From Escherichia phage KIT01: a DNA stretch of 64,000 bases. Shown here piece by piece: positions 15,024 to 55,361 of the stretch (position 1 is the stretch's first letter; each line of letters begins with the position of its first letter). The notes beneath the pieces are model-generated. The model had not been told where the DNA came from. It made no database searches and worked only from the letters and a program-made list of their open reading frames with translations. The stretch is taken from the sequence record AP019521.1; one strand, given 5' to 3'. The translations under genes were made by a program, and so were the position numbers.

Positions 15024-17147
15024 CTACATTTTGAATTTATTTGATAAAGAAGAGATATCCAAAGACGCGGCAAGGATTTCCATAGCTTCGTTGCTTTCAG
15101 AAACGGATTCATTAACCAAGAATTGACTGAATCCATCCATCAGGCGAACTTCACCAGTTTCCATCAAATGGTCACCATCGTAAACAGATTCGCTGAGCTC
15201 TGAAGGAGGCGTTACGGTAGCTTCCATAAGGTATTTGTGAGATACTCTATCATTCATGGCAAAAGCCGCTACTTTATCAACCTTCAACAATAATCCACGC
15301 GGAAGGATAATTTCTGCTTCTTCGGCATATTCTGTAAGGTCACCAGGAGCGATAACTTTAACTGCTTCAGCACCTCGAATAACCATACCAATTTCAGCAA
15401 TTCTATCCGCAGGACCTTCAGGTGCAATTGGATTACCGAACTCGTCTTCTTCCCATTCTACCTCTTCGTCATCGACTTCACCCACATCAGATGAACTACC
15501 ACTAGCCAATTTAAACAACTCATCAGCAGAGGATAAAGAACCTTCACCACCAACAAAAACGGCTTGGTTGTCGAGGGCCATATAATTTTTACCAAATTCA
15601 CCAAAGATGTTAGGCTTTAATGAGGCTGACACAAAGTTCTTAAAGTAAAATGTTTTGTTATCGATATTATGGCGCAGAATTTTGTATGGCAAATCCTGAC
15701 CACGATACAAAATAGTACCCTTAGGAAGTTTAATACCCTTAGTAAATGCTGAGTCTAAATCCTTAATCAATTTAATAGCCGTTGTATTGTTTTCGGATTC
15801 AGGTTTACCTAAAAGGAATAAGTTCATAGGAGCATATTCAGCCGCGCAATATTCAATAATAGCATTGCTTTCGTCTTTGGTTAGGTCCTTAGGTTTAATG
15901 AGCTCGCCTGAATAAGCATATGCATCACTAATAGAATCGTTAACCAGTTTATAAACGGCTTCCATAGCGAAAGCAATTCGAGATGCTTTCTCTGAAGGGG
16001 AACCCTTAAAACGGGTACTCAGGTTATTAACAATTTTCTTAATAATATCCAGACTATTGGTTGTATTGATTTGCGAAAGGCCACTTAAAAGTCTATCGAC
16101 TTCTGTATTAAAAAATGCCATATTATTAGAGTAAATTTCAAACCCTTGTTTATCTCTATTAGCATAATTTAGTTTAAATTTACTATCAGTCATTAAAGCG
16201 TGTGTGAGAGCAATAGTGTATCTAAAGTTGGCAAGGTCCTCGCTCTTAGATTTAAACTGAGAAGCCTGGCGCATTTTAGTAATAGCACCTTTTTTAAAGT
16301 TCTGACTAATCTGTTCAATACCTTCGTTCTCAGGGCCTTCAGCCGTGTGAACCGGTACAGAAGCTTCAAACTCGTTATAAACCTGCAATTCTTTAGGGGA
16401 CAAAGTTTCAGGCTCAGCAGTAGAATACTGCGCGGCCGCTGCCATACGACGCGAAATCTTAGTACGAGTAATAACAGCCTTATCAGTACGTTTCTCTTCA
16501 ACTTGTGCAATAGATGCCGCTACGGCTTCGACCTTACTTACGGCCTGGCCAGTTTTCTTAGAAACATACACTTCGCCAACTTTAGACTCAACTTTAGTAT
16601 AAAGATCGGCATTAATTTCAGGCATACCCTTGATATCTTCAATATTAGCACCACGACGTACTAAAAGAACGTAGGTATGTTTTCCGCTGAATTGGAACAT
16701 GTCGTCAACAACTTTAAACTTACCACCGGTACGAGCCATAGCCAAACGAGCTAATACGCGCTGGACGGTAGGACCTTTACCTTTCATTTTCTTAGTAGGG
16801 AAACGGAACAAAACCGCGTCCATTTTAAGTTTGTTTACTTGTTCGTATATGGTATCGAAAATGGTGTTCAGTGTACCGAGTGGATCGGTACCCAAACCAC
16901 CCTTGAGTTCTGCCGGAGCGCCTTTAGCAGATAAACTCATTAAGATAACATGGACGTACTTATCACCATTTTTAACCATCTTAATAGCGTCGCCTTCAGA
17001 CGCATAAGATACCATACGTGCTACTAAATTGTCATTACCAGGAGCATGTACCGCAAAAATCTGCGGTACGCCTGAGCCAGGTTTAAGATTTGTTACTGGG
17101 TAATTTTTTTTATCGCTTTTATCAAAAACTTCGTTTAAATTTTCCAT
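15024..17147 (-). CDS. alt: Alt-like mono-ADP-ribosyltransferase, paralog 1 (acidic insert, SAS variant of the STS motif)
   Basis: 707 aa; N-terminal about 230 aa and C-terminal region match T4 Alt; has YRGQ, FVSASLKP and EIILPRG. Confidence 0.85.
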   Translation of the reverse strand: MENLNEVFDKSDKKNYPVTNLKPGSGVPQIFAVHAPGNDNLVARMVSYASEGDAIKMVKNGDKYVHVILMSLSAKGAPAELKGGLGTDPLGTLNTIFDTIYEQVNKLKMDAVLFRFPTKKMKGKGPTVQRVLARLAMARTGGKFKVVDDMFQFSGKHTYVLLVRRGANIEDIKGMPEINADLYTKVESKVGEVYVSKKTGQAVSKVEAVAASIAQVEEKRTDKAVITRTKISRRMAAAAQYSTAEPETLSPKELQVYNEFEASVPVHTAEGPENEGIEQISQNFKKGAITKMRQASQFKSKSEDLANFRYTIALTHALMTDSKFKLNYANRDKQGFEIYSNNMAFFNTEVDRLLSGLSQINTTNSLDIIKKIVNNLSTRFKGSPSEKASRIAFAMEAVYKLVNDSISDAYAYSGELIKPKDLTKDESNAIIEYCAAEYAPMNLFLLGKPESENNTTAIKLIKDLDSAFTKGIKLPKGTILYRGQDLPYKILRHNIDNKTFYFKNFVSASLKPNIFGEFGKNYMALDNQAVFVGGEGSLSSADELFKLASGSSSDVGEVDDEEVEWEEDEFGNPIAPEGPADRIAEIGMVIRGAEAVKVIAPGDLTEYAEEAEIILPRGLLLKVDKVAAFAMNDRVSHKYLMEATVTPPSELSESVYDGDHLMETGEVRLMDGFSQFLVNESVSESNEAMEILAASLDISSLSNKFKM

Positions 17148-17150
17148 TAT

Positions 17151-19196
17151 TTACCCTTGGGTGAATTTTTCTGGGGTTTCGTCAAAATTAATACATGAAG
17201 CTAAAATAGGCATTATATCCACCTTGGTCGATTTGACGAATGAATCAAAAGACACAGGGTTGTCGGTCTCTGTTTCTACGCCTTGGTAAACAACCAATTC
17301 GCCGGTTTCCATCAATGCATCACCATCATAGATAACCGCATTTTCTGCTAGTTGGTCTGTGGTCTGGATGTCAGCTTCCAATAATTTGGTGTTGTAGTTT
17401 CCTTTATATGAGGCATCTGTAATTTTAGTAATCTTAACAGTAGTTCCACGTGGAAGAATAACCTCTTGTTCTGTTGGAGAACCTGACAATTCACCGGGCA
17501 CAATTACGTTAATAGAGTCTGCACCGGAAATTTTCCAACCGATGTTCATCATTGTATTTTCGGAACTCGTCAGCATACTTGGAAGAACAATTTCATTATC
17601 GCCTTGGAAAGATGTCCCAGCACGATAGTCCTGATGAACTGCGGCCATTGCGACGTTTGATACCCAGCCGCCAAAGATAATCGGCTTAAGGGACGTTGAT
17701 ACATAGTTCCTGAAATAAAACAATTTTGAGTGTTTGATTTTATCAAAAGTGTTAACATTTAAATATTGACCACGCCAAAGTGTAATATCAGGTGGCAATT
17801 TATGGCCAATTTCAAATGCCGCATCCATATCATTAATTACTTCAATTACACGATAACTATCAATAAATTCTGCATCCTCTTCATAATAATTACCCAACAA
17901 ATAATTATTAACATCGGTATAATATTGGCCGCAATAAGAAGAAATAGCCTCACGCTGCTCATACTCAAATCGATTATCGCTATAACTGGCTGTAAAATGC
18001 ATAACACTTTCTGACGCTTCATTAGCAAAGTCGCTAACAGCAGCACTTATACGTTGAGCATACTCTTGTTCCCAAAGCTCTGCCGCATATTCTGCCGCAT
18101 CCATATTAGGAGGAGCCTCATTCATTTTTCTTTCGATAAATGCAGCTTTGCGAAGGTTAAGAACCTCTGCACATGATTCGGCAAAAATCTGCATCTGCTT
18201 CATACTGCCGACAGGAGCACGTTTAAGTTCACGATGCATACGGTTAAAAATTGGGTCGGAGTCTTCGACTCGAATTTCTTCTTTCCAAACACCGTTTGCT
18301 CGCATAGCCATATCTGCCGCGCGCATACGCTCCATAGTATTCGTTTCAGAAGGTTGAATAAAAATTTCTAGTTCTTCATAATCATCGATAAGTTCTGCTG
18401 TTGCTGGGGCGCTAAATTTTGATGCCTCTGCATCAATCTCATCCCAACCTTCCGGAACTTCATCTCGAGGAGAATACTGGGCTGCGGCTACAGCACGCCT
18501 AGAAATCTTGGTAGTAGTAATAACAGCCTTATCCGTACGTTTTTCTTCGACTGCAGCTATACTAGCAGATAGTGCTTCTATTTTGGTTACTGATTGGCCT
18601 GTTTTCTTGGATACATAAACCTCACCAACTTTAGACTCAACCTTAGTGTAAAGGTCTGCATCAATTTCAGGCATACCTTTTATGTCCTCAATATTAGCTT
18701 GTTTACGAACCAGTAAAACGTATGTATGTTTGCCTGTAAATTGATACAAATCATCGACAACTTTAAACTTGCCGCCAGTACGAGCCATCGCCAAACGTGC
18801 CAATACACGTTGAACAGTAGGACCTTTACCTTTCATTTTCTTGGTAGGGAACCGGAAAAGAACTGCATCCATACGAAGAGCTTTAACTTGTTCGTATACA
18901 GTATCAAAAATGGTATTCAGCGTACCAAGTGGGTCAGAACCTAACCCGCCTTTCAACTCGGCTGGGGTACCCTTAGCAGACAAACTCATCAAAATAACAT
19001 GAACATATTTATCGCCCGGCTTAACCATTTTAATAGCGTCTCCTTGAGACGCATAAGATACCATACGAGCAACCAGGTTATCGTTACCTGGTGCTTGGAT
19101 AGAGAAAATCTGTGGAATACCGGAACCCGGTTTAAGATTTACTACTGGATAGTTTTTAGCGGAATCACTATCAAAAACCTCGTTTAAATTTTCCAT
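17151..19196 (-). CDS. alt: Alt-like mono-ADP-ribosyltransferase, paralog 2
   Basis: 681 aa; conserved N-terminus (MENLNEVFD...PQIFS...), WRGQ, YVSTSLKP and EVILPRG motifs; divergent central region. Confidence 0.85.
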   Translation of the reverse strand: MENLNEVFDSDSAKNYPVVNLKPGSGIPQIFSIQAPGNDNLVARMVSYASQGDAIKMVKPGDKYVHVILMSLSAKGTPAELKGGLGSDPLGTLNTIFDTVYEQVKALRMDAVLFRFPTKKMKGKGPTVQRVLARLAMARTGGKFKVVDDLYQFTGKHTYVLLVRKQANIEDIKGMPEIDADLYTKVESKVGEVYVSKKTGQSVTKIEALSASIAAVEEKRTDKAVITTTKISRRAVAAAQYSPRDEVPEGWDEIDAEASKFSAPATAELIDDYEELEIFIQPSETNTMERMRAADMAMRANGVWKEEIRVEDSDPIFNRMHRELKRAPVGSMKQMQIFAESCAEVLNLRKAAFIERKMNEAPPNMDAAEYAAELWEQEYAQRISAAVSDFANEASESVMHFTASYSDNRFEYEQREAISSYCGQYYTDVNNYLLGNYYEEDAEFIDSYRVIEVINDMDAAFEIGHKLPPDITLWRGQYLNVNTFDKIKHSKLFYFRNYVSTSLKPIIFGGWVSNVAMAAVHQDYRAGTSFQGDNEIVLPSMLTSSENTMMNIGWKISGADSINVIVPGELSGSPTEQEVILPRGTTVKITKITDASYKGNYNTKLLEADIQTTDQLAENAVIYDGDALMETGELVVYQGVETETDNPVSFDSFVKSTKVDIMPILASCINFDETPEKFTQG

Positions 19197-19199
19197 TAT

Positions 19200-21287
19200 T
19201 TACCCTTGGATGAATTTTTCTGGGATGTCATAGAGGTCTATGCATGAAGCCAAAAGAGACAGTACATCAAACCGTGTAGATTTAACAAATGAATCAAAAG
19301 ATACGGGGCTTTCGGAAGTATCGAAATCATCTTGATATACGACCAACTCACCGGTTTCCATTAGTACGTCACCATCATATACCACAGATTCTTGAAGCTC
19401 ATCTGATGTCATAACTTCAGCTTGAATAAATTTATTGTTAGACCCAGCCCCAGAACCAGTATTGGCTGATGCATCCACGATTTTATCTATTTTTACAAGT
19501 AGCCCGCGTGGTAAAATTATTTCCTTTTCGTTGGCATGCATGCTTAATTGGCCAGGATAAATCACGTTAACCTTATGAGCGCCACTAATAGCCCAGCCAA
19601 CATCAACCCGGATTTGATCCGGTGCATACATATGTGTACGCACTTGACTATCAGAGATGGTAACGCCTTCGTCATTATTATCAACGTTTAATTCTTTTCG
19701 AACATCATCGGAAGCAAGACCAATAGCCGCATTCTCTTTAAAGCCACCAAAAATGATTGGAGCCAATGAGGTTGAAACATAGTTTCTAAAATAGAATACC
19801 TTATTTTTAACTAATGCTTCGTAGATAGGCGCGCGCAAAGATTGGGCTCTATAAACCATTATTCCTTCAGGTAAACGGTCACCATTTTTAAAGGCCGAAT
19901 CCATTCCATCAATAGCACGTTTAACTTCGCTTTCGTCCAAAACTTCATAAAAGCCTGGTTTATAACGGCCAAGAAGGACATTGTTGATATCAACATAAGC
20001 TGAAGAGGCGTATTCTCTGATAGCTCGTTTTTCTGCAAGTGTATATTGTTTAGGGTCTCGAGATGTTGTTATATTAAGAATTTCTCTAGTTGATTCTATA
20101 GCGTATGTATACATTATCTTAGACAAGAATGAAGACTTACGTTGTTTCCATACTCTTTCACTGTTTTCATTCAATATCTCTTTTTCCAAATGGAAATTGT
20201 CTTTTCTATAATCTTCAAACCAATCACTTTTAATAGATTCTGCGATTTCATTAGCAGCTTCAACAAAGGCAGCTAAAGCTTTAACTGACGTGGTTTTTTC
20301 ATTTTTAATTTTTTTGACAAATTTTTCTAAAGAAGAGTTAATTTTATCACCGTAAGAAACTTCATCCGCAAATTTAAATGAATCATCCATAGTATTATAA
20401 ATTTTAAAATCAATAGCCGTAGCCAGCTTATCCTTAGCTGTTTCGGATGATAATGATAATTCAACTTCGGCTGCTTGTGGAATTAATTCCGCCGTAGCAG
20501 GTGCACTGAACTCATTGGCAGTTTGTTCATATTTCTGAAACAATTCACCTTCATTACGGTCTGCTTCTAATGACTGACTTGCTGCAATAGCACGACGGGA
20601 AATCTTAGTTTTGGTTATAACCATTTTATCAGTGCGACGTTCTTCAACTTTAGCAATACTGCCGGCAATAGCAGTTTCTTTAGTAACCTGCATGCCTTCT
20701 TTTTTAGAAATATAAACTTCACCGACATCAGAATCTACCTTAGTATATAATTCAGCATTAATTTCTGGTATACCCTTAATATCTTCAATGTTAGCTTGTT
20801 TACGAACTACCAGAATATAAGTATGTTTGCCGGTGAATTCATACATGGCTGGAACTACTTTAAATCGTCCACCAGTTTTCTGTGCTACTAAACGTTGAAT
20901 AATACGTTGAACGATAGGACCTTGTCCTTTCATTTTCTTGGTAGGGAACCGGAACATCACGGCATCCATACGAAGAGCTTTAACTTGTTCGTAGACAACA
21001 CTAAAGATAGTATTAATTGCATCGATAGGAGTAGGGCCAAGGCCACCCTTAAGTTCTGCTGGAGTACCTTTAGCTGATAAACTCATCAGAATAACGTGGG
21101 CATATTTATCACCTAATTTAACTTGTTTGATCGCGTCTCCTTGAGACGCATAAGATACCATACGAGCAACTAATTGGGACTCTGCATCGCCAATCTTCCA
21201 AATCTGGGGTACTTTAAGTTTAGGGTTCAAGTTTACTGTAGGCAGTGTGCCTTCGGACTCAAACACTTCATTTAATTGTTCGGTCAT
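19200..21287 (-). CDS. alt: Alt-like mono-ADP-ribosyltransferase, paralog 3 (closest to T4 Alt)
   Basis: 695 aa; YRAQSL, RNYVSTSLAP, NEKEIILPRGLLVKIDKI and C-terminal LMETGELV all match T4 Alt. Confidence 0.88.
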   Translation of the reverse strand: MTEQLNEVFESEGTLPTVNLNPKLKVPQIWKIGDAESQLVARMVSYASQGDAIKQVKLGDKYAHVILMSLSAKGTPAELKGGLGPTPIDAINTIFSVVYEQVKALRMDAVMFRFPTKKMKGQGPIVQRIIQRLVAQKTGGRFKVVPAMYEFTGKHTYILVVRKQANIEDIKGIPEINAELYTKVDSDVGEVYISKKEGMQVTKETAIAGSIAKVEERRTDKMVITKTKISRRAIAASQSLEADRNEGELFQKYEQTANEFSAPATAELIPQAAEVELSLSSETAKDKLATAIDFKIYNTMDDSFKFADEVSYGDKINSSLEKFVKKIKNEKTTSVKALAAFVEAANEIAESIKSDWFEDYRKDNFHLEKEILNENSERVWKQRKSSFLSKIMYTYAIESTREILNITTSRDPKQYTLAEKRAIREYASSAYVDINNVLLGRYKPGFYEVLDESEVKRAIDGMDSAFKNGDRLPEGIMVYRAQSLRAPIYEALVKNKVFYFRNYVSTSLAPIIFGGFKENAAIGLASDDVRKELNVDNNDEGVTISDSQVRTHMYAPDQIRVDVGWAISGAHKVNVIYPGQLSMHANEKEIILPRGLLVKIDKIVDASANTGSGAGSNNKFIQAEVMTSDELQESVVYDGDVLMETGELVVYQDDFDTSESPVSFDSFVKSTRFDVLSLLASCIDLYDIPEKFIQG

Positions 21288-44600: not shown

Positions 44601-44608
44601 TATAAATA
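44601..44608 (+). promoter_or_regulatory. Late promoter (TATAAATA) for gene 34
   Basis: Exact TATAAATA 32 nt upstream of the gene 34 ATG. Confidence 0.6.
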
Positions 44609-44640: not shown

Positions 44641-47600
44641 ATGGCCGATATTTTAAAACCTGCCTTCCGTGCTACATCCGGACTCGATGCTGCAGGCGAG
44701 AAAGTTATCAATGTTGCCAAAGCCGATTACAATGTATTAGACGACGGCGTCAACGTTGAATTCTTTATAGATGAGAACACCATCCAGGCGTACGACGAGA
44801 CGCGCGGATATAAGAAAGGGTTTGCCGTAATCCATGACCAACGTATCTGGGTTGCTCAACGTGATATCGATGCTCCGGCAGGAGCCTTTGTACCAGGTTA
44901 TTGGACTGCTACCCGTACTGACCCTAAATGGATTACTGTAGCGTCTCCTACACGCCAACTGGCTTCTGGTGAATATATTGCGGTGGATTCTGCTGCTAGC
45001 TTTACTACATTTACCCTGCCTCCTAACCCTACAGATGGCGATACCGTTGTAATTAAAGATATCGGTGGACGTGTTGGTTATAATGAAATAAAGGTCCAAT
45101 CTAGTTCTGCTCCTGGCGGCGGTAACCAGAAAATTGTTCGTTTTGGTAATCAGTTTACTGAGACCTTAATTACGAAGCCTTTTTCTTATAACATGCTTAT
45201 CTTTGCTAACCGTCTTTGGCATTTCTGGGAATCGGGTAACGAAGAACGTGGTATCCGTGTAGAACCTAACACCGCTCAGTTCCAAGCTCAAGCCGGTGAT
45301 AACATTCTCCGTCGTTATACTTCAGGTGCAGTAATTAAGTTTACTCTTCCTAAGTATGCGAACCAAGGCGATATTATTAAAACCGCTGATATCGATGGTT
45401 TAGGAAGTAAATTCCACTTAATCGTTGAAACATTCGATGCGTCATCTTCATTAGGTAAGCTAGGTCAGCATAGCATGGAATTCCGTACCTCCGGTGACGG
45501 ATTCTTTGTTTATAACTCTACCGAAAAATTATGGTATGTTTGGGACGGCGACCTTAAAACCCGTTTACGTGTAATTCGCGATGATGTTGAACTCTTGGCT
45601 AATGAAAGTATTATTGTTTTTGGTCCTAATAATACAACGCCACAGACGATTAATATCACATTACCTACAGGCGTAGCCCAAGGTGATGTCGTTAAGATTG
45701 CTCTGAACTATCTCCGTAAAGCTCAGACGGTAAATATTAAGGCTGCTGTAGGAGATAAAATAGCTTCTTCGGTTCAATTGCTCCAGTTCCCTAAACGTTC
45801 TGAATATCCGCCGGATACTGAATGGGTATTGAATGATGTATTGACCTTCAATGGTAACTTAAGTTATACTCCGGTTATTGAACTGAGTTATATCGAAGAC
45901 ATCACTACAGGTGGCAAATATTGGGTTGTTGCTCAAAACGTTCCTACTGTAGAACGTGTGGATTCTAAAGATGATTTAACCCGTGCTCGTCTTGGTGTTA
46001 TTGCTCTGGCGTCACAGACCCAAGCAAACGTCGACCATGAAAATAATCCTGAAAAAGAACTTGCAATTACTCCTCAGACTTTAGCTAATCGTGTAGCGAC
46101 TGAATCTCGTCGTGGTATTGCTCGTATTGCTACTACTGCTCAGGTGAACCAGGATACAACCTTCGCATTCCAGGACGATTTGATTATTTCTCCTAAGAAA
46201 TTAAACGAACGTACTGCAACCGAAACTCGTCGTGGTGTTGCTGAAATTGCTACGCAAGTTGAAACCAATGCTGGTATAGATGACACTACAATCATCACTC
46301 CTAAGAAGCTACAAGCGCGCCAGGGTTCGGAAAGTCTTTCAGGTATTGTAACATATACCTCTACTGTAGGAACCACTCCTGCGACTGCTAGGGACACCGT
46401 AGGTACTAACGTTTATAATAAGAACGTAGGCAATTTGGTTATTTCTCCTAAAGCTCTTGACCAGTATAAAGCTACCCAAGTTCAACAGGGTACGGTATAT
46501 CTTTCTAACCAATCTGAAGTTAACGCAGGCCAATCGGCAAGTGGATTTGCCAACAGTGCTGTTTCTCCTGAAACATTACATGCTCGTGTGGCTCTTGATA
46601 CTCGTACAGGGTTAATTGAAATTGCTACGCAAACAGAGACTGATACTGGAACAGATTATACTCGTGCGGTAACGCCTAAGACGTTAAATGATAGGAAAGC
46701 TACGGAAGGATTGACTGGTATTGCTAGAATTGCAACACAGGTAGAATTTGATGCAGGTGTATTAGATAATGTTATTTCAACTCCGTTGAAAATTAAAACA
46801 AGATTTAATGATACTGCTAGAACTTCTGTCTCAGCAGCCAGCGGTTTGGTTGAATCAGGAACCTTATGGAACCATTATACACTAGATATTAGAGAAGCAA
46901 ATGAGACACAACGTGGCACTGCTCGCCTGGCAACCCAGACCGAAGTCAACGTTGGTACTGATGACAAAACTATCATCACTCCTTTGAAATTACATTCTAA
47001 AAAATCTACTGAAAGTTCTGAAGGTATTATTCGTGTTGCAACGAATACCGAAACAACCGCAGGAACTTCTAAAGTTCTGGCTGTAAGCCCTTCTGGTTTA
47101 AAATATGTAGTACAGACCGAAACCACTTGGGAAGCTACTGCACTTCGTCGTGGATTTGTTAAATTAACTGAAGCTGCTTTAACTTACTCAGGAAATAAAG
47201 TTACTGGTTCTGGTGTTAAATTTAACTCAGGTACAGGCCTTTATGAGAATGACGATACTGTTCTGAATGCAGCTAACTACCCTAAAACAGGTTATGCTGT
47301 TTCATCTTACGAGATGAATAAAACTTTACAGAACTTTTTACCTATAAATGCTACGGCTGTGAACTCCGAGAAATTGGATGGCCTAGATTCACTCCAGTTC
47401 ATTCGTAGAGACGTCGACCAAACGGTTAATGGTTCTTTAACCCTGACCAAACAATTGAACCTGGCAGCACCTCTAGTGTCTTCTAGTACTGCTACATTTA
47501 CGGATGTTACGGCTACAAATTCTACCTTTGGTACAGTGAACGTTGTTAATGGAACCAATAAATGGAAAATAACAGCTCCATCTACCGGAACTACATTAAC

Positions 47601-48660
47601 CATTGGTGATACGACTACTAACGTATTGACTATGAACACCGCTACAGGTAATGTGGCTGCTCTGAATAACCTTAGTGCTGGAAATGATGTCCAGGCCAAA
47701 AATAACTTTGTCCTGAATGGAAGAACCATCGCAACCACCACCGGTGAAGCTTCTGGTGCTACATTGTCTTTAGGCGATAATTCTCAGAATTTGGTTCTTA
47801 AAACATTAGATGCAGGAAATATCGTAGCTAATGGTGGTGGTGCTTATAAAGTTCTGACCGAGAAAAACGCTGTAGAAATTGTAGACCGAAACTTTGTTAA
47901 CCAGGCCGGCGACACAATGACAGGTGTTCTCCGTGTTAATGCTCCGGTACGTGCATTTGGTACTAAGCCTACATTAGCATCCCAGGCTCCTACTGCAGAA
48001 ACAGTTGGCTTCTGGTCTGTTGATATCAATGACGAGGCTACTTATAGTAAGTTCCCTGGTTATTGGACAATGGTTACCAAGCGCCAGATTAATATTGATA
48101 CGGTCCAGACTAAACCTGCTGGGATGTCTTATAAAGATTGGAACAACTCTGGGTGGTTAACTGAAAGCGGTACAAATGGAAGAGATGAAAACAACGACCC
48201 TATAAAAGGCCCGGATAACCAACCGATTCAGGTTGTACCTATTCGTTATCGTAAACCGGATGGAACTTTAGGTGACCCAGTTAGTACACCAGAGGCTCCT
48301 ATACGTGGTACTTGGTTTGATTATTCTGTTCGTGATAAGGAAGTTAAATATCCTGGTACGTTAACTCAGTTTGGTAATACATTGGATTCATGTTATCAGG
48401 ATTGGGTGTGCTATCCTACAGGATTGAATGGTGGTACTATTCGTTATACACGTACCTGGCAGAAAAATAAAAACGCATGGACTACGTTCTCTATGGTCTA
48501 TACCGCAGATAACCCTCCTTCTGCTGAAGAGGTTGGTGCATTGCCTGCTGATAACGCTACAATGGGTAACATTACAATCCTTGATTGGTTACGTATTGGT
48601 AACGTTCGTATTATTCCTGACCCGGTCACTAAATCTGTTAAGTTTGAGTGGATTGAATAA
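44641..48660 (+). CDS. 34: gp34 long tail fibre proximal subunit
   Basis: 1339 aa; long collinear match to T4 gp34 (LQFPKRSEYPP, RRGIARIATTAQVNQ, C-terminal GNVRIIPDPV.K.VKFEWIE). Confidence 0.95.
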   Translation: MADILKPAFRATSGLDAAGEKVINVAKADYNVLDDGVNVEFFIDENTIQAYDETRGYKKGFAVIHDQRIWVAQRDIDAPAGAFVPGYWTATRTDPKWITVASPTRQLASGEYIAVDSAASFTTFTLPPNPTDGDTVVIKDIGGRVGYNEIKVQSSSAPGGGNQKIVRFGNQFTETLITKPFSYNMLIFANRLWHFWESGNEERGIRVEPNTAQFQAQAGDNILRRYTSGAVIKFTLPKYANQGDIIKTADIDGLGSKFHLIVETFDASSSLGKLGQHSMEFRTSGDGFFVYNSTEKLWYVWDGDLKTRLRVIRDDVELLANESIIVFGPNNTTPQTINITLPTGVAQGDVVKIALNYLRKAQTVNIKAAVGDKIASSVQLLQFPKRSEYPPDTEWVLNDVLTFNGNLSYTPVIELSYIEDITTGGKYWVVAQNVPTVERVDSKDDLTRARLGVIALASQTQANVDHENNPEKELAITPQTLANRVATESRRGIARIATTAQVNQDTTFAFQDDLIISPKKLNERTATETRRGVAEIATQVETNAGIDDTTIITPKKLQARQGSESLSGIVTYTSTVGTTPATARDTVGTNVYNKNVGNLVISPKALDQYKATQVQQGTVYLSNQSEVNAGQSASGFANSAVSPETLHARVALDTRTGLIEIATQTETDTGTDYTRAVTPKTLNDRKATEGLTGIARIATQVEFDAGVLDNVISTPLKIKTRFNDTARTSVSAASGLVESGTLWNHYTLDIREANETQRGTARLATQTEVNVGTDDKTIITPLKLHSKKSTESSEGIIRVATNTETTAGTSKVLAVSPSGLKYVVQTETTWEATALRRGFVKLTEAALTYSGNKVTGSGVKFNSGTGLYENDDTVLNAANYPKTGYAVSSYEMNKTLQNFLPINATAVNSEKLDGLDSLQFIRRDVDQTVNGSLTLTKQLNLAAPLVSSSTATFTDVTATNSTFGTVNVVNGTNKWKITAPSTGTTLTIGDTTTNVLTMNTATGNVAALNNLSAGNDVQAKNNFVLNGRTIATTTGEASGATLSLGDNSQNLVLKTLDAGNIVANGGGAYKVLTEKNAVEIVDRNFVNQAGDTMTGVLRVNAPVRAFGTKPTLASQAPTAETVGFWSVDINDEATYSKFPGYWTMVTKRQINIDTVQTKPAGMSYKDWNNSGWLTESGTNGRDENNDPIKGPDNQPIQVVPIRYRKPDGTLGDPVSTPEAPIRGTWFDYSVRDKEVKYPGTLTQFGNTLDSCYQDWVCYPTGLNGGTIRYTRTWQKNKNAWTTFSMVYTADNPPSAEEVGALPADNATMGNITILDWLRIGNVRIIPDPVTKSVKFEWIE

Positions 48661-48668
48661 GAGGTATT

Positions 48669-49790
48669 ATGGAAAGATTTATGGCAGAATTTGGACAAGG
48701 ATATGTCCAGGTTCCTACATTATCTGAAAACAATGCTGTAAGGTATAAACTTAGTATAGCGGGTAGTTGTACTAAGTCTACCACAAAAGCATATGTTAAA
48801 TTTCAAGATGGGAACTTCGGTTCCCAGAATTTTCAAAATGGATTAAACCTTATAGAAATCGATGTTAGTGCTGAACCCAAAATAGTGGCTAACAAAACTT
48901 ATAGTTTTACAAAAGATTTTGATGTTATTTCTGAAGCTTTTATAACGTATATAAATTCTATACCAGCCAATAGAATAGTTTGTTTAGTATCTTCTGGTAG
49001 ATTAAATGCTTCACAAAAACTTATTGATTGGTTCCATGCAGCAGGAAGTACCGCATTCCCGACTAAATGGTTAATAGACCGGTTTGAGCCATCTTATTCT
49101 GCATTTTATGTTTCAGGAAGGAATGCTATAGTAATGGAACATGTGCTTTATAATGATGGGGTATTGATCGAAGATGTTTCTACTCCATTAGAAGTGGTAT
49201 TTGATGATATCAGCGACGTCGGTGGTACAGGATATCCTGTCAGAATTGTTGAAGATGAAAACACTTATCTAAGCAATGATGGAGATGAAATTAAGAGATT
49301 TCCTACCGAATCTCCTACCACCCCATTAACAGATTATAATATGAAACCAGGTGAATTCTTTTACCTTAAGTTTCAATTAATGTGCGACCAAGCTTTAAAA
49401 GACGTCGGGACCTCTCAGATGTCTGTTAGATTTTTTAATGCCTCAGGTGCTTTAACCGGGACAGTTAATATGGACGTTCCTTCCAACGTTCCTGCTGGTG
49501 CATGGATGACATTTGAACGAGTAGTAATGGTTCCTGAAGGTACTACAGACTTCACCCTTTATGCCAGAAAAACAGCTTCGGCCGGACAAGGTGGAGTTCG
49601 AAATGTTATGTTCGGTGAGATATCTGAATCAGAACCTCAGCCAAAACCTGCTGAATTTGGTGTTAACGGTATTCGTATGAACTTTGGTACAGAAACTAAA
49701 AATATGGGTACTACCATAGCCCAGCTATATGATAAAACAGGTACTAAACCTGGTCAGGTTTGGGTCGCTGAATTTAGAGAAAAATATTAA
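48669..49790 (+). CDS. 35: gp35 long tail fibre hinge protein
   Basis: 373 aa; matches T4 gp35 (MEKFMAEFGQGYVQ.P.LSE.N.VRYK.SIAGSC; QAGQGG.RN; KPAEFGVNGIR). Confidence 0.9.
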   Translation: MERFMAEFGQGYVQVPTLSENNAVRYKLSIAGSCTKSTTKAYVKFQDGNFGSQNFQNGLNLIEIDVSAEPKIVANKTYSFTKDFDVISEAFITYINSIPANRIVCLVSSGRLNASQKLIDWFHAAGSTAFPTKWLIDRFEPSYSAFYVSGRNAIVMEHVLYNDGVLIEDVSTPLEVVFDDISDVGGTGYPVRIVEDENTYLSNDGDEIKRFPTESPTTPLTDYNMKPGEFFYLKFQLMCDQALKDVGTSQMSVRFFNASGALTGTVNMDVPSNVPAGAWMTFERVVMVPEGTTDFTLYARKTASAGQGGVRNVMFGEISESEPQPKPAEFGVNGIRMNFGTETKNMGTTIAQLYDKTGTKPGQVWVAEFREKY

Positions 49791-49817
49791 GGAACCTTCG
49801 GGTTCCTTTTTCGTTTT
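49791..49817 (+). terminator. Rho-independent terminator after gene 35
   Basis: Hairpin GGAACC-TTCG-GGTTCC followed by TTTTTCGTTTTT. Confidence 0.65.
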
Positions 49818-49864: not shown

Positions 49865-50512
49865 ATGGCAGATTTAAAATTAGGTTCTACAGCAGGAGGT
49901 TCGGTATTATGGCACCAAGGTAATTTTCCCTTAACGCCTGTATCAAATGACCTTCTTTACAAAACATATAAAGTTTACACCGAATATAATAAACCACAAG
50001 CCACTGATAACGACTTTGTTTCAAAAGCAAATGGTGGTAATTATAAGAATAACGTGTATTTTGAAAAAGGCCTGACCTTTAATGATACTAATGGATATGG
50101 TATTAAATTAGGAGCAAGAACTGGCGGAGCACCGTTCACGGCTTCTTTCCGTATTAAAGGCGCTTTTGGATATGAAACGGAAGACGGTACTCCGTTCATG
50201 ATATTCAACCCAAGTACAGTAGTAGGTGCTAAACGCCTTACAGTAATGGGTGATTCATTATTCCGTCAAGTTTATGACGAATCAGGTCGTGTATTCAGTC
50301 CAGGCAACACCCCTACTAAAGCTCAAGTAGGATTATCGTTAGTAGATAACGCAAAACAGGTCCAAATAAATAATACTAACATGCAAACAATGACCGGAGT
50401 ACTTGCTGCTCCTAACTTTATTTCGCTGAATCCGGCCTCTGACGCAGGACACGTTCCTCGTTTTGACCAGATTGTTATTAAAGATTCTATCCAAGATTTT
50501 GGTTATTATTAA
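49865..50512 (+). CDS. 36: gp36 long tail fibre distal connector
   Basis: 215 aa; matches T4 gp36 (MADLK.GST.GGSV.WHQGNFPL...; C-terminal HVPRFDQIVIKDS.QDFGYY). Confidence 0.9.
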   Translation: MADLKLGSTAGGSVLWHQGNFPLTPVSNDLLYKTYKVYTEYNKPQATDNDFVSKANGGNYKNNVYFEKGLTFNDTNGYGIKLGARTGGAPFTASFRIKGAFGYETEDGTPFMIFNPSTVVGAKRLTVMGDSLFRQVYDESGRVFSPGNTPTKAQVGLSLVDNAKQVQINNTNMQTMTGVLAAPNFISLNPASDAGHVPRFDQIVIKDSIQDFGYY

Positions 50513-50520
50513 GAGGCATT

Positions 50521-53500
50521 ATGGCTACTTTAAAGCAAATCCAATTTAAAAGAAGTAAAGTAGCCGGTGTACGTCCAGCACCGGCCCAGTTGGCTGAAGG
50601 CGAACTGGCTATTAACTTAAAGGACCGTTTACTTTTTACTAAAGACGACTCTGGCGCTATCATCGACCTTGGCTTTGCTAAGGGTGGAAATATCGATGGT
50701 AATGTTATTCATAAAGGCAATTACAACCAAACCGGCGATTATACACTTAATGGTGTATTTACTCAAATTGGTGATTTCAATCTCAATGGTATTGCTCGTG
50801 TAACTCGTGACATCATTGCGGCAGGGCAGATAATGACCCACGGCGGTGAACTTATTTCTAAGAGCGCCTCAACTTCTCACCTTCGTTTCTTTGATGGTGA
50901 TGATCGTGAACGTGGTATTATCTTTTCTCCAAATAATGCGGGTCTTACCAATCAAGTAGTTAATATTCGCGTCCAAGATTACGCTGCAGGAAGTGAAAGC
51001 ACCTACGCGTTTTCAGGCAATGGTGTATTTTCTTCACCAGAAGTTTTTGGGTGGAAATCTGTATCAACTCCGGTAATTTATACCAATAAAGTTATTACCA
51101 ACGGTAAAGTTGCAGGAGATTATGATATCTATTCATTGGCCGATAATACCCCATTGGCAGAAAGTGAAACAGCTATTAACCATCTCCGTGTTATGCGAAA
51201 TGCAGTTAGTTCGAGCATTTTCCATGAAGTTAAAGATAATGACGGGATAACCTGGTATGCTGGAGATGGATTAGACGCTTATCTTTGGTCGTTTACCTGG
51301 TCTGGCGGATTGAAAGCCGGTCATTCTATTTCTGTAGGCACCCCAGGCAACTCTAAAGGATATTCTGAATTAGGGACGGCTTCAATTGCTCTTGGCGATA
51401 ATGATACCGGGTTAAAATGGCATCAGGATGGATATTATTTCAGCGTTAATAACGGCACAAAAACTTTCATCTATGGACCTGCAGAAACCACCAGTCTTAG
51501 AAAAATGGTTATGGGTTATTCTGTAACCGGCACAGATTTGACTACCCCGCCAACAGAAAACTATGCATTGGCTACTGTTGTTACTTATCATGATAATAAC
51601 GCGTATGGCGACGGTCAAACTCTTTTAGGTTATTATCAAGGTGGAAATTATCATCACTATTTCCGTGGTAAGGGCACGACAAACGTTAATACTCACGGCG
51701 GTTTGTTAGTTACTCCTGGTAATATTGATGTTGTTGGTGGTTCGGTTAATATTGATGGCCGAAATAACAACTCAGTTTTGCTTTTTAAAGGTTATACCAC
51801 TGGTCAGAGCTCTGTTGATAATATGTCTATTGCTGTATGGGGTAACACCTTTAATACAGTAGGTGGCACCCGTAAAAACGTGATGGAAATTTCTGATGCA
51901 ACTAGTTGGATGCATTATATTCAACGAACAACTGAAGGTAAAGTCGAATCGGTTCTAAACGGCACCCAGATTGTTAATGAAAACTTGACAGTAGTAAAAA
52001 ATGCTACATTTGACGGTACAATCAGCTCAGCCGGTGAAATCGCGACAAATGCTGTCAATGCCCTTAGAATTTGGAATGACGATTACGGCGCCATTTTCCG
52101 ACGCTCAGAAAACAGTCTTCATATTATTCCTACCGAGTTTGGACAAGGTAAAACTGGAAATATCGGATCCCTTCGCCCGTTCCGTATGGACCTGGATACA
52201 GGTAAAGTAAGTATTCCTAATATGGATAATACTAATTTGGATATGAACCCAAATGGTTCTATTAAGTTCACAGGCCATGGTAATGGCACCGAGCTGTATA
52301 TTAATCAGTACGGGCAAGCGGCACCTATTTATCAAGAAATTGATAATGATTCCGCTTCTGCTTATATCCCAATTATAAAACAGAAATACTTAAATGGCGG
52401 TATAATGTGGTCTATTGGAACCGAACTTAATTCTGGTGATTTTGTAATCCATAGAATTAATGCCGCCGGTGATGAAAACCAAATTATTAAATTTGATAGT
52501 AACTGCATTCCGCATTTCCCGGATAACGTTGTGGTTGGCGGTGGCGAAGCTGCTATTGCTAGAAATGGTAATATTTTCTCGGATATTTGGAAAACGTTTA
52601 CTTCAGCTGGCGATGTAACTAATATTCGCGATGCTATTGCCTCCCGTGTGGCTAAAGAAGGCGACACGATGACAGGCCGTTTAACTCTGAATGCAAACTC
52701 GGATGCTATTGTTATTAACAGTGCTGCAACCGAATCTGGTTATTTGAAAGGACAAAAAGCGGGCGTTAATAACTGGTATGTTGGTAATGGCGGCGCTGAT
52801 AACGCCCTATCGTTTTATAGTTTCCAAACTAATTCGGGCGTTAATATTCATAATAGCGGAGAAATTGGTTTAGCTCCTCAAGGGTCGGATACTTTTTATT
52901 TTAATAAGGACCGACTTTATATAAAGGGTACACAATGGACAGCTCATCAATCTGGTGCATGGGGTGACCAATGGACCACAGAAGCTCCGGTGTTTGTAGA
53001 TTTTGGTAATGTTGGTAATGATAGTTATTATCCTATTATCAAAGGAAAATCTGGTATTACTAACGAAGGATACATATCGGGTGTAGATTTTGGTATGCGA
53101 CGCATTACTAATACCTGGGCTCAAGGTATTATTCGTGTAGGTAACCAGGAAAATGGTCAAGACCCACAAGCTATCTATGAATTCCACCACAATGGAGTTC
53201 TGTATGTTCCTAATATGGTTAAAACTGGAGCAAGATTATCAGCCGGTGGTGGTGACCCCGCATGGGGTGGGCCGTGCCTTGTTATTGGTGATAATGATAC
53301 TGGTTTAGTCCATGGCGGTGATGGTCGTATTAACATGTTTGCCAATGGGGCCCATATTGCTTCTTGGTCTAGCTCTTACCATATCCATGAAGGTCTTTGG
53401 GATACCCATGGGGCTTTGTGGACTGAAACAGGAAAAGCTATTATTTCTTTTGGCCATTTAGTCCAACAAAGCGACGCCTATTCAACATTTGTTCGCGATG

Positions 53501-53847
53501 TTTATGTTCGTTCTGATATTCGTGTTAAAAAAGACCTTGTTAAATTTGAAAATGCTTCTCAGAAGCTTTCTAAAATTAACGGTTACACTTATATGCAGAA
53601 ACGTGGCCTAGATGAAGAAGGTAACCAGAAATGGGAACCCAACGCTGGTTTAATTGCTCAAGAAGTTCAAGCTATTTTACCTGAATTGGTTGAAGGTGAC
53701 CCTGATGGTGAAGCTTTACTTCGTTTGAACTATAACGGTGTAATTGGTTTAAATACAGCTGCAATCAATGAGCACACTGCAGAAATAGCAGAATTGAAAT
53801 CAGAGATTGAAGAACTTAAAGCATTAATTAAATCATTGTTAAAATAA
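50521..53847 (+). CDS. 37: gp37 long tail fibre distal subunit with C-terminal intramolecular-chaperone-like domain
   Basis: 1108 aa; N-terminus matches T4 gp37; C-terminus [15 protein letters not shown]...[14 protein letters not shown]...ELK resembles autoproteolytic chaperone domains of phage fibres. Confidence 0.9.
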
Positions 53848-53852
53848 TAAGA

Positions 53853-53866
53853 GGGGCTTCGGCCCC
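53853..53866 (+). other. Intercistronic tetraloop hairpin between genes 37 and 38
   Basis: GGGGC-TTCG-GCCCC overlapping the gp38 RBS region. Confidence 0.4.
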
Positions 53867-53878
53867 TTGGAGGTTTAT

Positions 53879-54676
53879 ATGGCAGTAACAGGACCGTGGG
53901 TAGGATCGTCTGCAGTAGTTAACACAGGACAAAACTGGATGGGCGGCGCCGCTCAACGATTGAGAATGGGTATTCCGTTTTGGATGAGTAATATGAACGG
54001 TCGGTCTGTTGAAGTAATTCATACCATAACGGCAAACCATAACTTTAATGGTCAATGGTTCCGCGACCGCTGTTTTGAAGCAGGCAGCGCACCTATTGTG
54101 TTTAATATCACAGGCGATATAGTATCTTACGACCGTAATGTTCCATTGTTCTTTATGAATGCCGACACACCTAATGAATATGTCAATTTGACTATTCATG
54201 GAGGCGTGCATATGTGGGGCCGAGGCGGCCACGGTGGGTGGACCCATTCAGGTGGCGACGGTAACGGTCAATGGGGCGGTGATTGTATAGTCAACCATAT
54301 AGGTCATAGACTTCGTATTTGGAACTATGGGGTTATCTGTGGTGGTGGCGGTGGCGGTGGTGGCATTGCGTATCGTCCTCACTCAGGTGCTAACTGGCAA
54401 GATATCGGTGGTGGTGGTGGACGTCCATTTGGTCCTGGTGGCGGTGGTGGATACTCCGGTGGTGGTGCTTCTTATGAAAGCCCTGGCGGTGGATACGATT
54501 ATGGTAACGCCCACTCGGGTCGGGGTGGTGATGCTGGTGCCGCAGGCCAGAACGCATGGAATGATGGTGGTAAAGTTCTTAAAGTTGGGGCTGGGGGCGG
54601 TTCTGGGGCTGCTGTTGCCGTTTCTGCTCCTGCATGGGGCGCGACCGGTACGATTTACGGCCCTTGGCTTAGTTAA
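53879..54676 (+). CDS. 38: gp38 receptor-recognising adhesin (T2-type, glycine-rich)
   Basis: ATG at 53879 after RBS GGAGG; conserved N-terminus, poly-Gly tracts (GGGGGGGG, GGGGG) separating variable segments, as in T2/K3-type gp38. Confidence 0.85.
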
Positions 54677-54681
54677 GAATT

Positions 54682-54689
54682 TATAAATA
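54682..54689 (+). promoter_or_regulatory. Late promoter (TATAAATA) for holin t
   Basis: Exact TATAAATA 18 nt upstream of the t start. Confidence 0.55.
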
Positions 54690-54707: not shown

Positions 54708-55361
54708 ATGGAACCAAAAGTAGGAATATCATTATCAGACCTACTTTTTGGACTTCTTGATAGAATTTTTAAAGATACTTCTTCCGGGAAAGTTGTTTTT
54801 TCCCGGGTCCTAGTCGTAATATTATTGTTCTTTATGGCATTGGTTTGGTATAAAGGCGAGTATATTCTAAACTTTTATAAAGAGACTACTTATGCCTCTT
54901 ATACTGAAATGATTAGACAAGACCAGGACAATAGATTTAAAATTGCGGCTATCGAGCAGCTCCGAATAGTGCATTCTTCTTCAGGTGCAGACTTCACAGC
55001 AATATATTCTTTTAGACCAACCAACATGAATTATTTTGTGGATATGGTGGCTTACGAGGGTAAATTACCGGAAACGGTAGACGCAAAAAACACGGGAGGG
55101 TTTCCAATTGACAAAACGTCAGTAGAATATATGGCGGGAGTTAACGGGAACTATTTTGAATCAAGTACCGAAACTGTATTCCTTCCTACAAAGAAGAAAA
55201 CACAATTCACGTATATGTTTTCATGCCCGTTTTTTAATTTGGATAACGTCTACGCCGGCTCGATATCGTTGTACTGGTATGATATCAAACCGGATTTAGG
55301 ATTTCCTAGACTTTCGTCTATGTGCGGTCAGGCTGGGAGGACATTAGGTCGAACACGTTAG
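54708..55361 (+). CDS. t: Holin T
   Basis: 217 aa; strong match to T4 T holin (DLLFG.LDR.FKD...GKV..SRV.VVILLF.MA.VWY; C-terminal YMFSCPFFNLDN.YAG). Confidence 0.92.
   Translation: MEPKVGISLSDLLFGLLDRIFKDTSSGKVVFSRVLVVILLFFMALVWYKGEYILNFYKETTYASYTEMIRQDQDNRFKIAAIEQLRIVHSSSGADFTAIYSFRPTNMNYFVDMVAYEGKLPETVDAKNTGGFPIDKTSVEYMAGVNGNYFESSTETVFLPTKKKTQFTYMFSCPFFNLDNVYAGSISLYWYDIKPDLGFPRLSSMCGQAGRTLGRTR

Follow-up and report, generated by a model that had tools for sequence, protein, structure and literature searches.

How is the long tail fibre of Escherichia phage KIT01 built at its tip, and which of its two distal gene products, gp37 or gp38, would contact the host? Both genes lie on the plus strand of the 64,000-nt stretch of DNA that we analysed (the window): gene 37, for the distal subunit precursor of the fibre, occupies 50521-53847 (1108 aa and a stop codon, followed by a second TAA), and gene 38, for a 265-aa tail fibre adhesin, runs with its stop codon from 53879 to 54676. 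The open reading frames confirmed the limits given in an initial annotation of the locus, and the gp37 strings quoted there are present in the translation. The gene order 34-35-36-37-38-t agrees with that of Dhakavirus records, and gp37 is 85% identical in amino acid sequence to its counterpart in phage FB and 79% to that in WG01. The best explanation, to which we assign a probability of roughly 93%, is that the locus encodes a T2/S16-type long-tail-fibre tip of a Dhakavirus-like T-even phage; the initial annotation had arrived at much this reading, and its observation is confirmed and its interpretation supported overall. For the locus itself, the analysis showed which domains and motifs are present, how they relate to solved structures by homology, and that synteny is kept.

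The last 195 aa of gp37 (aa 914-1108) match the tip and chaperone domain of Salmonella phage S16 gp37 (PDB 6F45_A, E = 1.2e-43). The intramolecular chaperone domain at the C-terminus begins at Ser998 and comprises 111 aa (aa 998-1108; 53512-53844, plus strand). Peptidase_S74 (Pfam PF13884) scored 47.5 bits (gathering score 22; E = 2.2e-12) on aa 998-1057, the alignment taking in positions 1-57 of the 58 in the model, and the isolated 111-aa domain matched 6F45_A residues 93-204 with an E-value of 5e-32. The last ~110 aa had been described earlier as chaperone-like, with a profile search against chaperone-of-endosialidase domains proposed as the check, and the outcome of that search bears the description out. 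A weak match of the isolated domain to the MyRF ICA (E = 0.03) aligned the lysine of the catalytic dyad. Single-sequence AlphaFold2 prediction of aa 914-1108 gave an unusable model (mean pLDDT 42.7, pTM 0.27), the sole confident part of which was the terminal helix (pLDDT 84-90). This amphipathic helix, inside the chaperone domain (53773-53844, plus strand), carries I, L, M, V or F at seven of eight a/d positions in its best heptad register and is probably a trimeric coiled coil. The identity of the domain is settled because its sequence matches the solved S16 tip (E about 1e-43). Its sequence is 100% identical to that of the TH44 domain, and homologues occur in 1379 phage records; NCBIfam, a library aimed at proteins of bacterial and archaeal genomes and uninformative here, matched neither gp37 nor gp38.

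The predicted self-cleavage site, Arg997^Ser998 (53509-53514, plus strand), lies in the motif DVYVR^SDIRVKK, which aligns with DLNVS^SDRRIKK of S16 and DVYIR^SDGRLKI of the fPS phages. The Ser-x4-Lys dyad is intact, with Ser998 (53512-53514) as the first residue of the chaperone domain and Lys1003 (53527-53529) as its partner, and both columns are invariant in the gp37 proteins of T2, RB32, FL08 and S16. The cleavage-essential pairs of endoNF (S911/K916) and MyRF (S587/K592) have the same spacing (PMC8326128). In S16, according to PMC7917993 (citing Dunne 2018), a ~113-aa chaperone domain excises itself at DLNVS^SDRRIKK and uncovers the docking site for gp38; in T2 and T6, according to PMC3157838 (citing Drexler 1986), the gp37 C-terminus is cleaved and gp38 then caps it. 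From these T2 and S16 homologues we infer that KIT01 gp37 likewise cleaves itself after trimerization. A Peptidase_S74 domain that had degenerated, lost cleavage and stayed on the fibre as a distal knob, with gp38 bound elsewhere or absent, would fit the arginine that precedes the cut where S16 has serine, cleavage in KIT01 being a prediction from sequence. Against such retention, however, neither the dyad nor the SD(I/R)R(V/L/I)K motif is disrupted, and both are invariant among relatives, T2 included, whose gp37 is processed according to experiment; the R^S junction equals that predicted for the fPS phages, and conservation of the domain is 97-100% among relatives having the matching gp38 attachment domain. 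We consider a retained knob very unlikely.

Removal of the chaperone domain would leave a mature distal tip of aa 914-997 (53260-53511, plus strand) that ends in the DVYVR strand and is the predicted docking face for gp38, a role carried over from the description of S16 in PMC7917993. The KIT01 tip aligned with residues 22-92 of 6F45_A and is 88% identical to the tip of FL08. Because it is only 32% identical to the S16 tip and carries a 12-aa insertion relative to it, the docking geometry may differ from that of S16 in detail. Further upstream, a shaft module (aa 417-566; 51769-52218, plus strand) is homologous to the C-terminal region of T4 gp34, matching PDB entries 4uxe, 5nxf and 5nxh (E about 2e-15) and, over aa 450-554, Pfam Gp34_trimer (E = 1.9e-7). 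Across many T-even phages, gp34 and gp37 proteins share this module; a duplication of KIT01's own gp34 was considered and rejected, the best BLASTP E-value between the two being 0.11.

Gene 38 starts at ATG 53879 rather than at the in-frame TTG 53867 chosen in the open reading frame list, because every homologue begins MAV. Its product covers the full profiles of both GP38 (PF05268; E = 2.6e-63, 214.2 bits) and Gp38_N (PF21721, on aa 1-39; E = 7.9e-21, 74.2 bits), each with a gathering score of 25, and matches two solved adhesins, the receptor-binding domain of PP01 gp38 (PDB 9V85, E = 1.9e-59) and 6F45_D (E = 7e-47). The T4 arrangement, in which gp38 serves only as an assembly chaperone, is missing from virions and leaves receptor binding to the gp37 C-terminus, shares the gene order 37-38-t with KIT01, and several database records call the homologous gene a 'distal long tail fiber assembly catalyst'. 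Those labels, however, are annotation transferred from T4; for gp38 no Pfam family other than those of adhesins, and so none of assembly chaperones, scored at E 0.01 or better, and gp37 ends in a domain of the self-cleaving Peptidase_S74 family, not in a receptor-binding needle. The T4 gp37 tip structure was absent from the results of the PDB search with gp37. A T4-type tip is barely credible on this evidence, and the T2-like architecture favoured from the outset over the T4 chaperone arrangement stands.

Two domains of gp38 can be delimited. The N-terminal attachment domain (aa 1-39; 53879-53995, plus strand), defined by Gp38_N, contains Trp7, Trp20 and Trp35, which are invariant in an alignment of six sequences (KIT01, WG01, FB, RB32, FL08 and S16); the equivalent residues of S16 are reported as prongs in PMC7917993. 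The C-terminal specificity domain (aa 114-265; 54218-54673, plus strand) consists of glycine-rich motifs, G.GGD.G among the invariant ones, that alternate with variable loops in the same alignment, and glycine makes up 36% of this region. The alignment and the two Pfam families agree with the earlier assignment of gp38 to a T2/K3 type with polyglycine around variable segments. For T2, T6, S16 and PP01 the literature establishes gp38 as a component of the virion, located at the fibre tip and binding the receptor, and by analogy KIT01 gp38 would be a virion tip adhesin that binds the receptor.

The longest glycine tract is a Gly8 run (aa 155-162; GGTGGTGGCGGTGGCGGTGGTGGC; 54341-54364, plus strand), of the same length in all six gp38 sequences. 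A conserved RPFGP is flanked by two Gly5 tracts, one at aa 177-181 (54407-54421) and the other at aa 187-191 (54437-54451), which together span 54407-54451 on the plus strand; runs of only three glycines (G3) lie at 54458-54466, 54485-54493 and 54593-54601. Glycine in gp38 is encoded by 36 GGT, 19 GGC, 7 GGA and 5 GGG codons. The initial annotation had placed GGT/GGC simple repeats at about 54340-54440; the region is indeed GGT/GGC-rich, but the repeats are imperfect and the tracts extend slightly past 54440. Two open reading frames overlapping gene 38, 53828-54247 on the minus strand and 54327-54686 in another frame, were dismissed as by-products of GGN-rich coding.

Triplet repeats of this kind could in principle form a slippage-prone contingency locus that varies the length or frame of the adhesin, with no structural role for the glycines, and Tandem Repeats Finder did report a period-3 array. 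That array, however, was confined to 54339-54363 with 81% matches, so the DNA repeat is imperfect. The lengths of the G8, G5 and G5 tracts are equal in KIT01, FB and RB32, and that of G8 in S16 as well, although the codons vary synonymously (GGT/GGC against GGT/GGA, for example); because lengths are fixed and codons synonymous, the constraint lies at the level of the protein and not of slippage-prone DNA. In S16 the glycine tracts are polyglycine-II helices of the adhesin core, and in T6 deletion of the glycine-rich motifs abolishes function (PMC3157838). We therefore regard slippage as extremely unlikely and the tracts as structural.

Between the gp37 stop and the gp38 ATG lies a 31-nt gap containing a hairpin, AGGGGC-UUCG-GCCCCU (53852-53867, plus strand), identified from sequence and fold, the stem of which is kept in FB, WG01, FL08 and RB32; the equivalent T2 stem-loop carries the annotation 'stem-loop, pot. 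transcription terminator'. The Shine-Dalgarno sequence of gene 38, GGAGG (53869-53873, plus strand), is placed 5 nt before the ATG and is conserved in relatives. A T4-type late promoter box, TATAAATA (54682-54689, plus strand), upstream of the holin gene t (54708-55361; Pfam Phage_holin_T, E = 6.4e-66), marks where the fibre cluster ends downstream. No RNA genes emerged when the entire 64,000-nt window was scanned with Rfam and for tRNAs.

Together with the homologous systems, these features suggest a pathway for tip assembly in which cleavage, docking, the stoichiometry of one gp38 per trimer, the presence of gp38 in the virion and the receptor are all carried over from homologues. In this pathway, gp37 would be synthesized as the 1108-aa precursor, and its last 111 aa would act as a Peptidase_S74 intramolecular chaperone that trimerizes, assisted by its C-terminal coiled coil, and provides the nucleus from which the trimeric tip folds. 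The chaperone domain would then excise itself by a Ser998/Lys1003-mediated cut between Arg997 and Ser998, uncovering a flat tip that ends in DVYVR, onto which one copy of the 265-aa gp38 would dock through its Trp-bearing N-terminal attachment domain. The C-terminal domain of gp38 would form a polyglycine-helix sandwich made of the conserved glycine tracts and display the variable loops; by binding a protein of the outer membrane, OmpA being the most likely one, these loops would set the host range.

Variable segments of gp38 determine receptor choice in relatives, a literature that favours the initial annotation's proposal of gp38 as the likely host-range determinant in KIT01 too. The receptor of KIT01 is likely OmpA, because its variable loops closely resemble those of the OmpA-dependent phages RB32 and FL08: the specificity domain is 80-81% identical to theirs, with near-identical loops, and RB32 requires OmpA and LPS whereas FL08 requires OmpA. 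Prediction of receptors from gp38 similarity can fail, as a few residue changes swap Tsx and OmpA between PST and T6. The attachment domain of gp38 covaries with the tip of gp37: tip and attachment domain are 88% and 97% identical to KIT01 in FL08 and only 11% and 60% in RB32. KIT01 itself combines a Dhakavirus backbone, a mosaic gp37 shaft, an S16/K3-type lock-and-key tip and OmpA-type loops, and no shaft in the phage collection matched its own mosaic at 90% identity or more. This combination of modules is the only mildly new aspect of the locus. We give about even odds to the idea that it is a natural example of attachment and specificity modules swapped recently between genera at conserved glycine-rich or tip boundaries; if true, such a swap would aid the design of chimeric fibres.

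No new mechanism is revealed here, as a self-cleaving gp37 C-terminus paired with a polyglycine gp38 adhesin is long established in T2, T6 and S16. Cleavage of T2 gp37 was published in 1986 (Drexler) and the S16 structure in 2018 (Dunne). The pairing of a gp37 whose C-terminal folding domain cuts itself off with a glycine-rich gp38 adhesin as a distinct protein is already known as the ordinary, textbook arrangement of T2-like coliphages; this adhesin-type arrangement has been characterized and predominates in T-even-like phages, a point on which the initial annotation was silent. The value of the locus is mainly one of annotation, in that it indicates how KIT01 recognizes its host, probably OmpA via the gp38 loops. 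For host-range re-engineering, the parts to exchange are either the gp38 specificity domain or gp38 along with the gp37 tip that matches it.

Among known systems, Salmonella phage S16 (PDB 6F45; Dunne et al. 2018, Structure 26:1573, cited through PMC7917993 and PMC12892980) resembles KIT01 in having a self-cleaving chaperone domain of 112-113 aa after the gp37 tip, the SDxRxKK motif, and a gp38 that starts MAV.GPWVGSS and carries conserved Trp prongs along with a G8 tract and GGGGGRP motifs. Identity is limited to 32% in the gp37 tip, 56% in the chaperone domain and 49% in gp38, and the variable loops differ, S16 being a binder of Salmonella OmpC whereas the KIT01 loops resemble those of OmpA binders. 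In T2, as in T6, K3 and Ox2, the gp37 C-terminus is proteolysed and gp38 then caps the fibre (Drexler, Riede and Henning 1986; Riede et al. 1987; Trojet et al. 2011). The T2-type gp38 shares with that of KIT01 a length of ~260 aa, glycine-rich motifs and hypervariable segments, and a stem-loop likewise separates genes 37 and 38. T2 nevertheless represents a different lock-and-key subtype, with a gp37 tip 20% and a chaperone domain 30% identical to those of KIT01, and its gp37 of 1341 aa with a predicted C-terminal fragment of 99 aa compares with 1108 and 111 in KIT01.

The Dhakavirus phages WG01, QL01 and vB_EcoM_FB have a gp38 98.5% identical in amino acid sequence to that of KIT01, an identical N- and C-terminus of gp37 and the same synteny; the QL01 backbone is 96-97% identical to that of KIT01. 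Relative to these three phages the KIT01 gp37 shaft is mosaic over about aa 440-920, and the best DNA matches of its middle part, about 88-89%, are to other phages. RB32/RB33 and FL08 carry the OmpA-dependent gp38 proteins whose specificity domains are similar; in RB32 this domain is joined to an attachment domain of T2/T6 type (MAVVGVPGWIGSS), and the gp37 tip is likewise a different one that matches it. A more remote similarity links KIT01 to the K1F endosialidase endoNF and the MyRF ICA, which share Peptidase_S74, the Ser-x4-Lys dyad, a C-terminal coiled coil and a position after a trimeric beta-helical stalk; in KIT01, by contrast, the cut would uncover a docking site for an adhesin, not merely mature a tailspike.

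The two plus-strand genes at 50521-54676 lie within a canonical T-even long-tail-fibre cluster, comprising gp34 (44641-48660), gp35 (48669-49790), gp36 (49865-50512), gp37 (50521-53847, plus strand, 1108 aa), gp38 (53879-54676, plus strand, 265 aa) and, at the 3′ end, holin t (54708-55361). Because fibre-gene order and spacing are identical in vB_EcoM_FB and WG01, both Dhakavirus phages, and 12 kb of the window, used as a control, share 96-97% identity with Dhakavirus QL01 and UGJNEcP3, the source, judged by sequence, belongs to the Tevenvirinae and is Dhakavirus-like.

The initial annotation described the last ~110 residues of gp37 as chaperone-like, and profile searches against chaperone-of-endosialidase families bear this out. 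Residues 998-1057 match Pfam Peptidase_S74 ("chaperone of endosialidase"; E 2.2e-12, 47.5 bits, gathering score 22), and the Salmonella phage S16 gp37 tip (PDB 6F45 chain A) is matched by the last 195 aa (E 1.2e-43) and by the last 111 aa alone (E 5e-32), which also align weakly with the MyRF ICA domain (7dc3, E 0.03), including its catalytic lysine. Within the predicted cleavage-site motif, Ser998 and Lys1003 stand five residues apart, the same spacing as in the Ser-Lys dyads of endoNF (S911/K916) and MyRF (S587/K592), which are required for the self-cleavage immediately before the serine (PMC8326128). Both columns are invariant in an alignment with T2, RB32, FL08 and S16 gp37; the predicted C-terminal fragments measure 99-117 aa. 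PMC7917993 describes removal of the last ~113 residues of S16 gp37 at DLNVS^SDRRIKK after trimerisation, uncovering the gp38 docking surface, and gives DVYIR^SDGRLKI as the corresponding junction in related phages. For T2 and T6, PMC3157838 (citing Drexler 1986) likewise describes C-terminal processing of gp37, followed by capping with gp38. With the dyad intact and conserved, retention of a non-cleaving chaperone domain is unlikely. The final ~24 aa show a clean heptad pattern (7/8 core positions hydrophobic) and were the only confident part of a single-sequence AlphaFold run. The domain itself is common, found by tblastn in 1379 phage records, 176 at at least 95% identity and one (TH44) at 100%.

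The adjoining gp38 covers the full profiles of Pfam GP38 (E 2.6e-63) and Gp38_N (E 7.9e-21), also matches the solved PP01 gp38 receptor-binding domain (9V85, E 1.9e-59; PMC12892980) and S16 gp38 (6F45_D, E 7e-47), and is 98.5% identical to its WG01, QL01 and FB counterparts. Alongside Peptidase_S74 in gp37, these adhesin assignments uphold the proposed T2-like tip and exclude a T4-type arrangement, in which gp38 would be an assembly chaperone and the gp37 C-terminus the receptor binder; some records call the protein an "assembly catalyst", a label carried over from T4. The protein is 25% glycine overall and 36% glycine in aa 116-265, with plus-strand runs of G8 (aa 155-162, 54341-54364) and twice G5 (54407-54421 and 54437-54451), in addition to three shorter runs of G3. 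The three longest runs span 54341-54451. As first described, the codons are mostly GGT and GGC and the tracts surround variable segments: when six gp38 sequences are aligned, the Gly-rich motifs, Trp7, Trp20 and Trp35 are invariant and the intervening stretches vary. A slippage locus is contradicted because tract lengths are constant among KIT01, FB and RB32 while their codons differ synonymously, which argues for structural constraint, namely polyglycine-II helices like those of the "PGII sandwich" described for S16. Gene 38 is also crossed by two long overlapping ORFs, of 139 aa (53828-54247, minus) and 119 aa (54327-54686, plus, other frame); we rejected both as by-products of GGN-rich coding, one being poly-Val/His-rich nonsense.

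Domain assignments, motifs and homologies come directly from the present analysis; they confirm the observation at 50521-54676 and support its earlier interpretation, and we place the probability of a T2/S16-type fibre-tip architecture at roughly 0.93. Trimerisation of the gp37 precursor would start at the C-terminal chaperone domain; by analogy with T2, T6, S16 and PP01, the Ser998/Lys1003 dyad would cut the Arg997-Ser998 bond, the 111-aa fragment would then depart, one gp38 would dock via Trp prongs onto the exposed DVYVR face, and gp38 loops would bind an outer-membrane receptor.

Identities to the window for the gp37 tip (aa 914-997), the chaperone domain (aa 998-1108), the gp38 attachment domain (aa 1-39) and the gp38 C-terminal specificity domain are 88%, 97%, 97% and 80% for Tequatrovirus FL08, and 11%, 31%, 60% and 81% for Tequatrovirus RB32. 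This pattern is the lock-and-key pairing that Trojet et al. described, in which the gp37 tip and the gp38 N-terminus vary together, combined with an independently moving specificity domain. Because the variable loops are almost identical to those of RB32 (OmpA required, sensitive to LPS composition) and FL08 (OmpA-dependent), OmpA is, with moderate confidence, the probable receptor; gp38 specificity shifts with few substitutions.

Several further features were observed across the cluster. The only His-x-His motif in gp37, HIH at aa 954-956 (53380-53388), sits in a 12-aa insertion that the S16 tip lacks. In T4 gp37, whose needle is trimeric, metal ions are coordinated by HxH motifs. HIH is kept in FB and WG01, but an essential metal site appears doubtful because FL08 has Gln for the first His. 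A UUCG-tetraloop hairpin (53852-53867, AGGGGC-UUCG-GCCCCU) separates the double stop of gp37 from the Shine-Dalgarno of gp38. Its stem is kept in FB, WG01, FL08 and RB32, the loop varying among TTCG, TTAG and TTT. An old T2 record labels the equivalent stem-loop a potential terminator, but no T-run follows the stem on the plus strand, so it may instead serve mRNA stability or translational coupling. gp38 starts at ATG 53879, with GGAGG five nucleotides 5′; in-frame TTG 53867 was rejected, falling within the hairpin while homologues all start MAV. A second UUCG hairpin between genes 35 and 36 (49789-49808, AAGGAACC-UUCG-GGUUCCUU, then TTTCGTTTTT) looks like an intrinsic terminator within the fibre operon. 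Exact T4-type late-promoter boxes (TATAAATA) occur in the scanned fibre cluster only at 44601-44608 (5′ of gene 34) and 54682-54689 (5′ of holin t), with none directly before genes 36, 37 or 38; the eight in the whole window are not above chance (shuffle mean 6.7). The hinge protein gp35 (aa 57-130, 48837-49058) matches Pfam ILEI, an interleukin-like EMT inducer/FAM3-type domain, barely above threshold (28.5 bits, gathering score 27), which we take to be the 'GG domain' already reported for phage gp35. Elsewhere, three tandem paralogous minus-strand ORFs (15024-21287; 707, 681 and 695 aa) match regions that related Dhakavirus genomes annotate as three Alt-like RNA polymerase ADP-ribosyltransferases.

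Within the gp37 shaft, aa 417-566 (51769-52218) are homologous to the T4 gp34 C-terminal region (PDB 4uxe/5nxf, E ~2e-15; Pfam Gp34_trimer); no similarity could be detected between them and gp34 of the window itself. Because tblastn places this module in gp34 as well as gp37 of numerous T-even phages, T4 and T2 gp37 included, it is a fibre module shared and shuffled among them. The shaft is mosaic (gp37 as a whole has 85% amino acid identity to the nearest relative, and its middle third ~88-89% DNA identity to assorted phages), which is typical for tail-fibre genes and is the sole individual feature of the locus; the gp37-gp38 arrangement is already known and nothing new in kind.
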